The notes under the pieces: model-generated | The model's input: the letters and a program-made list of their open reading frames with translations, nothing else | Told to the model about the DNA's origin: nothing | Databases searched by the model: none | From: Eledone cirrhosa | Lineage: Eukaryota | Assembly (NCBI GenBank): GCA_964016885.1 | Contig: OZ024745.1 | Span: 7,812,001-7,876,000 of the forward strand | DNA length: 64,000 bases | Direction: 5' to 3' | Translations under genes and position numbers: made by a program | Shown: one piece after another, positions 21,901 to 24,524 of the stretch | Layout: the number at the start of each line of letters is the position of its first letter | Numbering within the stretch: the stretch's first letter is position 1

Positions 21901-22395
21901 GAGGCTCTTGCACCCTCCACCCCTATCCGCTAATCCCACACAGTCCCAGCGTGCATCTAAGATCCCGTTCCAGTCGCCCACTAACACTAAAGAGCGGGAC
22001 GTTCCAAGAAAGGTCTCCAGATGCCGGAAGAAATCAGGCCGCCCTGCTCCTGTCGGGGCATAGACGGCCACTAGCCTGAAAGCTTGCCCGTCTCCGCTGG
22101 TCACGTCCAGCACCACCAGCTTACCCTCTGGGTCCAGGAAGATGGCCCGTATGGCGAGATCCAAACCTCTCCGAAAAAGCACAGCAACTCCTCCACCGGA
22201 TCCAGGACGGCTGGGAGATGCGTACACATCGTAGCCGCCGAAGATCGGTGCGAAGGCCCGTGCTTCGGAGATTCTGGTCTCGCTGATGGCCACTACATCT
22301 ATGTTTAGTGACCTGAGGTCGTTGAGCAGGTGACCCTGCTTCCATGACGACCCCAAACCACGCGCATTTATGCTGCCTATTCTGAGTGAGGTCAT
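18984..22395 (-). pseudogene. Tx1-A ORF2: APE endonuclease + reverse transcriptase + CCHC, disrupted
   Basis: APE motifs SINARGL, AISET, VYAP, GDWN, YLDR, TDH; RT motifs KSPGLDG, FRPITLLN, DQSKAFD, RQGCPLS, YADD; CPRC..ETVLHALVQC. In-frame TAA just before AYADD (20347-20349) and frameshifts near the C-terminus. Confidence 0.93.
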
Positions 22396-22430
22396 GTTTA
22401 AAATAGAGTGGAAAAGATGGGAAAGACCAC

Positions 22431-24524
22431 TTACCGTACTTTTGGTAGAGGAGGGATGGTTTTTACATCCCTTTTCACTTGATCGTCTGGTGAAGGGACC
22501 GTTGAATCGTCCCTTCGGCTGGTCGTCGGCTCTTCTAAGAGAATGTCTGAGTATACTCTTCGATTGATGGTTCCTCCTAGGTCCCTGAAATCACCAACTG
22601 CGTTGGGGAATTTCGTTTTAATATTTGTGTATTGTTTCTGTGCTATTTTTAGCAGTCTTATGTTAGTTGGCGTTTTGATTGGTGCTGGTATTATGTAGTC
22701 GTGTTGTGAAATGTCTGTGTGTTCAATTATGTAAGTCATTAGTTTCTTGTTGTGTGTATTTATTGCCGTGCATTTGTTTTTCTGGGGGTGGGGTGTGGTT
22801 CTGCTATTTTCTTGTCGTTGTTGCTGGGTGTGTGTGTTTTGTTGTTGTGTTTGCGATGTTGGTGCTTGTGGTGGTTGTGTTGAAGGTGTTGTTGGCGGTG
22901 GGGTTGTCGCCGGTGGTGATGGTGTTGTTGCTGCTGTGGGTGGTGATGGTGTTGTTGCTGCTGTGGGTCTCTTTGCAGTAGACTTTACCCTTTTCTCATT
23001 TCTTTCCTCCCTTTTCAAAGGCGACGATGCGCTGCTTCTGCGTTTGTGCCTTCTTGCGACCTTTTGCCATCTCTCTCCCACCTCACACTCCATGTCTGAT
23101 TCTGTGAGGTCGGGGAGGGGTACCAGCTCTACTCTTTCACTTGTTGTTGTTGGTGATGTTTGCACTGGAGTCTCTGTTGCAGCTGCATTTGGTATTGCTG
23201 TTGTTGTTGTTAGTATTTCCACTGCTGCTGCTGTTTTTGATTTCCGTGGAGTGGGTATGGGTGCCACGGGCCTATCGTTCCTGGTTGCCGCTTGTCCTGT
23301 TGCTGGTAGCCGTGGAGCCGGATTCGGAAGGAGGGGGGTTTTCTCCTTTCTCAGGGTCTTCTCGTTGCAGAAGGCCCTGAGGTGAGTCTTCGATCCACAG
23401 CGAAAGCATTTCGGGCGTTTGCCCTCAACACTTATGGGCAGTTGAGTGCCGTTATCGAAGTCTATCACATCCGGGATAGCTTCGATGCACTCCTGGTTGG
23501 TTTGGATTAGCATCTCAATGGAGGAGCCGACCCAATCTTCTCTTACTTTTTTCTGTACTTGCAGTACAGTTGTTTTGTCGTCGATTCCGACGAGGACAGA
23601 CGCGGCCAGCCAAGAAGGGGTCATTCCGGGGGGGACGTGGGTCAGTTTGACCCTCACAATTTTTTGCCCACAGTAGGAGGGCACCAACACCATTTCCTCG
23701 CTCCTTAGGGTCACTACTGATTGGGCCTTTGCCTCCTGGGGTGTGGCAAAAAGTACGTCTACGGTGGCATATTTTTTGCCTCGGGTGATGTGCGTTTTCC
23801 GCTGCCACACAGACCCCAAGGCTTTTTGTATTTGGGCCTCTGTGGCTCTTTCCACCCTACGGGATTTTGTACTTACTGTACGGTACGTGACCGTACAGTG
23901 CTCTTGGGTTTCGAAAAATTTTTCCGCTGCCTTGCAGATTGCTCGGTGTCCGTTCTTTGTCACCATCTTCTTCGCTTCCTCTAATTCCTCATTTGTTATG
24001 AGGATTGTTTCCAAGTTTTTCGCAATACCTGCAAATGAGATTGGTTTTTCTCTGCTGTTGTTGTTGTCGTCAGAGCTGCTGGTACTTTTGTTGTTGCTGC
24101 AGGTACTACGACTACTGCCTCCGCCGCTGTTGCTGTGGTTGTTGTTGGTGTTGCTGCTGCTAATGCTGTTGTTGTTTATGCTGCTGGTGATGCTGTTGCG
24201 GCTGCTACTGTTGTTTTCATTGTCACTGTTGCTGTTGTTATTACGGCTGCTACTGCTTTTATTCCTGACGTCAGACGAATGAACTGGGTTTTCGTATTTC
24301 CCGCACACCTGTTTCGTCGCTGTCGTCGTCGTCGTGGAGAAACCTTGCACGCTTTGCACGAGACTTTTCTTTTCTTTCGTCACTTGCGAAAGAGAAGGGA
24401 GGGAGAGAGACACATTTAAAGAAGGGAGGGAGAGAGACAATCTTCGCTCTGCTGTAGTGATGATTGAGGAAGAAGAAGACGGAATGAGTGGGAGTGACGT
24501 ATGAAATTTCTTTTTCGTAGCCAT
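22431..24524 (-). CDS. Tx1-A ORF1p (gag-like nucleic-acid-binding protein), intact
   Basis: Open frame from MATKK (ATG at 24524); zinc knuckle CFRCGSKTHLRAFC (CX2CX4HX4C); S/N-rich and T/P-rich linkers. Confidence 0.85.
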   Translation of the reverse strand: MATKKKFHTSLPLIPSSSSSIITTAERRLSLSLPSLNVSLSLPSLSQVTKEKKSLVQSVQGFSTTTTTATKQVCGKYENPVHSSDVRNKSSSSRNNNSNSDNENNSSSRNSITSSINNNSISSSNTNNNHSNSGGGSSRSTCSNNKSTSSSDDNNNSREKPISFAGIAKNLETILITNEELEEAKKMVTKNGHRAICKAAEKFFETQEHCTVTYRTVSTKSRRVERATEAQIQKALGSVWQRKTHITRGKKYATVDVLFATPQEAKAQSVVTLRSEEMVLVPSYCGQKIVRVKLTHVPPGMTPSWLAASVLVGIDDKTTVLQVQKKVREDWVGSSIEMLIQTNQECIEAIPDVIDFDNGTQLPISVEGKRPKCFRCGSKTHLRAFCNEKTLRKEKTPLLPNPAPRLPATGQAATRNDRPVAPIPTPRKSKTAAAVEILTTTTAIPNAAATETPVQTSPTTTSERVELVPLPDLTESDMECEVGERWQKVARRHKRRSSASSPLKREERNEKRVKSTAKRPTAATTPSPPTAATTPSPPATTPPPTTPSTQPPQAPTSQTQQQNTHTQQQRQENSRTTPHPQKNKCTAINTHNKKLMTYIIEHTDISQHDYIIPAPIKTPTNIRLLKIAQKQYTNIKTKFPNAVGDFRDLGGTINRRVYSDILLEEPTTSRRDDSTVPSPDDQVKRDVKTIPPLPKVR

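Follow-up and report, generated by a model that had tools for sequence, protein, structure and literature searches.

A conserved U1-matching 5′ splice site at the end of ORF1 in an L1/Tx1-type LINE lineage of Eledone cirrhosa and its possible role in an ORF1-only message

The end of ORF1 in a lineage of L1/Tx1-type LINEs carries a 5′ splice site that matches U1; G|GTRRGT-type sites occupy this place in all 14 family representatives and in one further family, with the cut at most 6 nt from the ORF1 stop in every family. Judged from the compared sequences, the motif is very probably a selected U1 site, whether spliced or acting independently of splicing, and it is tentatively read here as a device that diverts part of the RNA into an ORF1-only mRNA. 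In the window, that is, the whole stretch of 64,000 nt analysed, the site (ACG|GTAAGT, 22429..22437 of the minus strand) encloses the ORF1 stop of an element of family A.

The element in the window and its relatives

Family A is represented in the window by a full-length copy at 18741..24737 of the minus strand (5′ end at about 24737). The element is an L1/Tx1-type LINE, with a separate ORF1 bearing a zinc knuckle upstream of ORF2, a simple-repeat tail, a poly(A) signal (18752-18747, followed by the (ATT)n tail) and no LTRs. ORF1 (22431..24524, minus strand) encodes 697 aa, including a CCHC knuckle, CFRCGSKTHLRAFC, and linkers of low complexity, and gave no Pfam match; ORF2 (18984..22395, minus strand), which has its own ATG at 22395, matches Exo_endo_phos, RVT_1 and zf-RVT, and its closest relatives of solved structure are human L1 ORF2p/EN. 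The APE, RT and zf-RVT of ORF2 and the CCHC ORF1 support the Tx1-A label of the original prediction at the level of an L1/Tx1-type LINE, an assignment reached with no named Tx1 reference elements among the database matches. An (ATT)n tract adjoining the 5′ end (24738..24766), with a matching tract at 18689-18740, is the likely target repeat. ORF2 of this copy is interrupted by an in-frame stop at 20347-20349, and many other genomic copies of the family have ORF2 open for 1,195-1,204 codons. Family A is young, its best 40 DNA matches in the 3.0 Gb host genome being about 100% identical; a junction 19-mer is common to 1,234 genomic copies, and G|GTAAGT and the CAG are kept at 60 junctions in 60 loci (a few of which are the same copy), a uniformity that among such young copies carries little information on selection.

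Sister families, found in the host genome by searches keyed on the N-terminus of ORF2 and not on the donor, are 70-97% identical in ORF2 at the nucleotide level. All the two-ORF families of this genome have a donor at the end of ORF1, a pyrimidine tract in the inter-ORF spacer (22400..22426, minus strand, in element A) and an ORF2 ATG usually placed after CCAAC. The donor is in phase 2 in A, A2, J, C, D, E and I and in phase 1 in B, B2, F and G (many copies), and the tree of the host families requires at least two phase switches. The ORF1 stop varies among TAA, TAG and TGA, and the donor holds three positions relative to it; in family K a GTGAGT donor goes with a TGA stop. The first copies of I and J had C at donor position +1, and further copies of the two read G|GTAAGT in 20/25 and G|GTAA in 21/25. 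The window itself holds a decayed element of sister family B (27631..33455, minus strand, approximate ends; 74% nucleotide identity to A), whose phase 1 donor, AAG|GTAAGT at 31297..31305, precedes an ORF2 ATG at 31263; the end of ORF1 in this family reads GGT AAG TAA in most copies. Family H (L163 and L175-177) was rejected as a relative, being an unrelated single-ORF family devoid of the motif.

The (ATT)n tail is found in A, B, F, G and J, and copies of C, D and E adjoin other repeats, which suggests family-specific insertion targets; insertion into specific repeats is typical of Tx1. LINEs of these families often lie head-to-tail about 6 kb apart, with up to ten F copies at C1:423.36-423.42 Mb. 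Family C clusters on smaller contigs and near the ends of the largest ones (C1 0.5-31 and 431-434 Mb; C2 3-21 and 395-414 Mb), unlike family A, which fills the interior of C1. On the plus strand of the window, other decayed RT-bearing retroelements, unrelated to the Tx1-type pair, are located between and beyond elements A and B (24691-27508 and 34875-44527). Family A is also present at about 95-99% identity in three runs (X5, X6 and X7) labelled as three different organisms, and a 61-aa piece of its APE (64% match) is found near the N-terminus of the Octopus sinensis 'tectonic-3-like' model XP_036360308.1, either through exonisation or as an artefact of annotation. PMC13282606 lists L1-Tx1 families as active in Octopus vulgaris.

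The most distant relative sharing the donor, family M, forms tandem arrays in contigs CAXXMW01 (L264-L313), from a genome deposited as a bacterial MAG; intact eukaryotic LINE copies in tandem, dozens of them, are spread there over many contigs and presumably derive from eukaryotic host DNA contaminating the MAG. Its ORF2 is 41% identical to that of family A and its ORF1 23% identical over 190 aa, with 51% nucleotide identity. The junction reads GAG TAA G|GTAAGT, 7 nt, ATG in 44/44 cases (overlapping loci count some copies twice), the donor being the best of 356 GT sites in the element, and the pyrimidine tract is absent. Among more distant L1-like loci (22-28% identity), the donor was absent wherever the start of ORF2 was readable, and likewise among the readable starts of 46 distant metagenome loci; the viral contigs searched gave no relative. 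Further donor-like sequences were observed around the ORF2 stop: AG|GTAGGT and AG|GTGAGA at the stop itself in B and E, and CTG|GTGAGT just past it in the 3′ UTR of M (L273:7470-7760), followed about 250 nt on by a branch-like CTAAAT, a pyrimidine tract and TAG, an arrangement resembling a complete 3′ UTR intron.

The donor and its match to U1

In an alignment anchored by script on a donor-like match, for which intact copies of I and J were used, -1G, +1G, +2T, +3A and +6T are present in 14/14 representatives, -2A and +5G in 13/14, and +4 is divided between A (12) and G (2); the flanks vary, positions -4 to -12 agreeing in only 5-9 of the 14. The variants are all compatible with U1 (GTAAGT, GTAGGT, GTGAGT in K and GTAATT in J), and the pairing of the donor with the host U1, which begins ATACTTACCTG, amounts to -10 to -13 kcal/mol. 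When the GT sites of each element (about 240-370) were scored with a matrix of approximate metazoan frequencies, this donor was best or joint-best in 15/19 rows and the top of 318 sites in a family A copy; the exceptions include one E copy, in which it is second, and two copies, of I and J, in which the donor itself carries a mutation. Each element contains the motif only 1-2 times. With a TAA stop and the local composition as given, the chance of GTAAGT at one copy is about 1.1% and that of G|GTAAGT about 0.25%; on the sequence comparison the donor is not a chance motif, since it is kept across families.

A second strong donor is found near ATG+240-285 in A2, B, F, G and J, reading AAG|GTAAGT in A2, G and J; in element A, site scoring identified a donor-like AGG|GTAAGC at about ATG+271 (22119..22127, minus strand), in the E-G-K codons of the APE.

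Acceptors, spliced copies and competing readings

The original prediction had taken the 53 nt from 22434 to 22382 of the minus strand as an intron fusing ORF1 to ORF2. The description of the letters is exact: the stretch starts with GTAAGT and ends with CAG (22382..22384, in the Leu-Arg codons 4-5 of ORF2), the ORF1 stop TAA (22433-22431) lies inside the donor, and removal joins CG to A in frame (...PLPKVR IGSINARG), KVR replacing SLR at the first APE strand. An in-frame AG is also found in the first ORF2 codons of each host representative of settled phase, including I, where the Arg codon is CGA; it adds little, because in most sister families it is merely the AG of the Arg codon AGA found there. 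The proposed product, an ORF1-APE-RT polyprotein, is nevertheless unsupported: such an intron appears very unlikely and is largely refuted by the genomic copies. In B, F and G the first AG past the ATG gives an out-of-frame product, a later TAG being in frame; in C and D the same cut removes only 39 and 42 nt, ending in AAG, lengths below the usual minima of animal introns; family L offers only an out-of-frame GAG; and the ORF2 ATG, which fusion would delete, is kept in all families. In M fusion is impossible, since the ORF1 stop precedes the donor by 1 nt. Of the conservation expected by the original prediction, that of the donor holds across families, while the 35-nt spacing and the in-frame YAG acceptor are not kept, donor-to-ATG distances being 13, 25, 28, 37-40, 46, 47 and 53 nt.

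The genomic argument starts from the premise that the RNA of an RT-encoding LINE is copied in cis, as established for L1 and assumed for this family, so that genomic copies without the intron are expected from a fusion splice. In LTR elements, packaging can keep the translated RNA apart from the RNA that is copied, whereas LINE cis preference predicts intronless copies under an Ogre-like fusion; they are absent here. Ogre LTR elements are the precedent for the proposal, their inter-ORF region, averaging 274 bp against 53 nt in family A, being partly spliced to give a polyprotein (PMC6317226). The fused-junction pattern of family A had 0 matches in the host genome and no copy lacking exactly these 53 nt was found, against 1,234 copies in which the upstream 17-mer is followed by GT, which places an upper bound of about 0.24% on spliced copies. 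For human L1, by comparison, about 2% of full-length L1PA1-6 are spliced copies, the SpIREs (131/6,609; PMC5860796).

Copies whose upstream exon continues otherwise than with the donor were also screened. In family A, none was spliced among 7 copies with non-G at +1 (all point mutants) or 10 with G then non-T (point mutants or a 1-nt deletion); among 41 with GT then non-A, 37 are mutants or small deletions, as judged from the printed letters, and the remaining 4, which were fetched, comprise three outside an element and one inversion. One A2 copy, L427, has an inversion breakpoint at the junction. No spliced copy was found among 67 older A/A2 variants with non-G (one of them fetched), in family C (302 intact, 0 non-G, 1 mutant), or among 27 and 2 matches in B/F and 10 in G, family totals not being counted for the latter three. 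Family I (60 and 22 matches) gave a single candidate (L399, C2:135302702), in which the end of ORF1 is joined to ATG+84, missing an exact GT-AG splice to the AG at ATG+83 by one G; either splicing from a variant donor or deletion by microhomology could account for it. These screens covered families A, A2, B, C, F, G and I, and would miss spliced exons starting with GTA and copies mutated in the anchor. A protein search for longer, fused forms returned 5 distant matches at 22-26% identity, which is weak evidence. Of seven sequencing runs listed, four were compared with the element: X1, the only one guessed to be RNA, has no cover at the junction; X5, X6 and X7, contigs of unknown kind, cross it unspliced, with none of 15 listed joints at the donor. 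The four are uninformative on expression or splicing.

The tentatively preferred reading, an ORF1-only message, would work as follows. With a U1-matching donor fixed at the end of ORF1, part of the transcripts would be spliced from it to an acceptor downstream of the ORF2 start, the best candidate being in the 3′ UTR in A and M (in element A, a U-rich tract with CAG at 18826..18845, minus strand). The spliced RNA would keep ORF1 whole and drop the ORF2 start, presumably raising ORF1p over ORF2p; the unspliced RNA would give ORF2p from its own ATG, by the reinitiation that is established for L1 and assumed here, and would be the form copied, with cis preference probably keeping the spliced RNA out of the genome. 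Bound U1 may in addition protect the long RNA against early cleavage, as it does in EVD. A cut within 6 nt of the ORF1 stop is where a splice sparing ORF1 and removing the ORF2 start would have to lie, and spliced copies would be absent because RNA lacking the RT is seldom copied. The donor is kept through changes of the ORF1 frame, and after the stop in M, and the invariance of its core and its rank among GT sites point the same way, as does the precedent of EVD/copia shGAG (PMC5580714). The best acceptors, strong by a scoring that U-rich UTRs inflate, lie in the 3′ UTR of A, A2, G and M, and no comparable AG is found in B, F, D and J.

Against an ORF1-only message, site scoring found no strong acceptor kept alongside the donor across families, and the internal AGs that families have in common are weak ones, perhaps held in place by codons; the one at ATG+83 (22313..22315, minus strand, in element A) is common to 13/15 aligned families. 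Moreover, the nearest AGs of phase-2 families are in frame, so that local splicing would fuse and not terminate; the spliced RNA keeps the 3′ tail and might mobilise in trans, although only the ambiguous L399 was met; and no internal poly(A) signal past the donor is conserved across families, unlike in EVD. Several partners were tried and rejected: the 3′ UTR CAG as a universal acceptor is confined to A/A2-type tails and is not conserved in B-G or J; the TAG of the ORF2 stop is absent in A and J, which have TAA; and for ATG+83, a search of A, C, B/F and I for copies with the junction gave none but L399. In the spacers of J, B2, F and G3, a pyrimidine tract and YAG are placed just upstream of the ORF2 ATG (they are absent in A, B, C, D, E, G and I), which could yield an ORF2-only RNA like human SpORF2.

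The donor may instead bind U1 and be rarely spliced, suppressing premature cleavage at poly(A) hexamers in the A-rich ORF1 or helping the intronless 6-kb transcript through elongation or nuclear handling, a possible but doubtful explanation in which the pyrimidine tract could help to load U1 or block later steps. It is close to the ORF1-only reading because no partner acceptor is conserved, and conservation of the donor without the acceptor, the lack of spliced copies and the second strong donor in ORF2 are all consistent with it. Most copies have A[AT]TAAA hexamers upstream of the ORF2 ATG, with one at about -310 to -410 in most families, and mutation of the U1 site of EVD leads to cryptic termination (PMC5580714); however, the ORF1 hexamers may merely reflect Asn, Lys and Ile codons, ORF2 has few to protect (none or one in most copies), and U1 binding alone leaves the cut so near the ORF1 stop unexplained. 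Retention of the motif for a reason other than U1, as a site for a DNA-binding factor, an internal promoter element or a stop-codon context, or its inheritance without selection, is unlikely. The donor in the 5′ UTR of human L1 is preserved as a component of a RUNX3 site (PMC5860796), the stop codon supplies three letters of the motif in phase-2 families, and the host families, alike as they are in ORF2, are not independent; on the other hand, the motif has outlasted two or more phase switches and is still present in M at 51% nucleotide identity, and its variation follows the U1 spectrum, including -2A and -1G, with flanks that are not conserved. A translation signal, whether a -1 shift of frame into ORF2, readthrough, or pairing of a reinitiation motif with 18S rRNA, is highly improbable. 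The ORF2 frame of A is open in the -1 frame for 65 codons upstream of the ATG, but the ORF1-to-ORF2 offset differs between families (A and A2 by 1 nt, C and D being in the same frame), and the host 18S (2,876 nt) contains a single perfect complement of GGTGAGT but none of GGTAAGT, GGTAGGT or GTAAGT; all three translational routes were rejected on these grounds. Reinitiation at the ATG is the default route to ORF2p, yet it leaves the donor unexplained. Evasion of HUSH was set aside as unsupported, since HUSH protection needed no 5′ splice site (PMC8770142).

Known systems and meaning

The closest parallel is the shGAG of Ty1/copia elements, described for Arabidopsis EVD (PMC5580714), in which a conserved U1-type donor likewise stands between the structural and the catalytic coding parts, the donor is better conserved than the acceptor, an excess of structural protein is proposed, and U1 also guards the full-length RNA by preventing early termination. 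EVD, however, belongs to the LTR elements, has a single ORF and uses a defined acceptor together with a premature poly(A) site, all demonstrated on RNA, whereas the present LINE is non-LTR and has two ORFs and no conserved acceptor or internal poly(A) site. Human L1 SpIREs and SpORF2 (PMC5860796 and PMC2896524) demonstrate that LINE RNA can have functional splice sites and that spliced RNAs leave copies; the SpIRE donor is in the 5′ UTR and the splices remove the promoter or ORF1, unlike here, where the donor is at the end of ORF1 and there is no clear spliced copy. HAL1 (half-L1; PMC5753468) represents ORF1-only LINE derivatives of the kind expected from copying an ORF1-only RNA, and no such derivative beginning at this donor was found in the host genome. 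Two ORFs, an APE-RT-zf-RVT ORF2, a CCHC ORF1 and a simple-repeat tail are shared with elements of the L1/Tx1 clade, and insertion into family-specific repeats may be as well. A conserved donor at the ORF1 stop of a LINE was not met in the literature searched, outside subscription papers and Repbase entries, and the site is probably a so far undescribed form of a known strategy.

In the usual view, LINEs fix ORF1p:ORF2p when a single bicistronic RNA is translated, and strong splice sites are avoided. The donor described here appears to be a real, selected feature and may, as the original prediction supposed of its intron, bear on that ratio. It is conceivable, though still short of probable, that this lineage independently evolved the copia strategy, with ORF2 as a retained intron, ORF1p made from a dedicated spliced mRNA and only the unspliced RNA copied through cis preference. 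A U1 site kept through frame changes and across a distance of 41% identity suggests that the lineage recruits the first step of the spliceosome; if the copia-like strategy is true, it would be a transcript-level route to the large excess of ORF1p over ORF2p in non-LTR elements. Present in their thousands in a 3-Gb genome, donors of this kind could have effects on host transcripts too.
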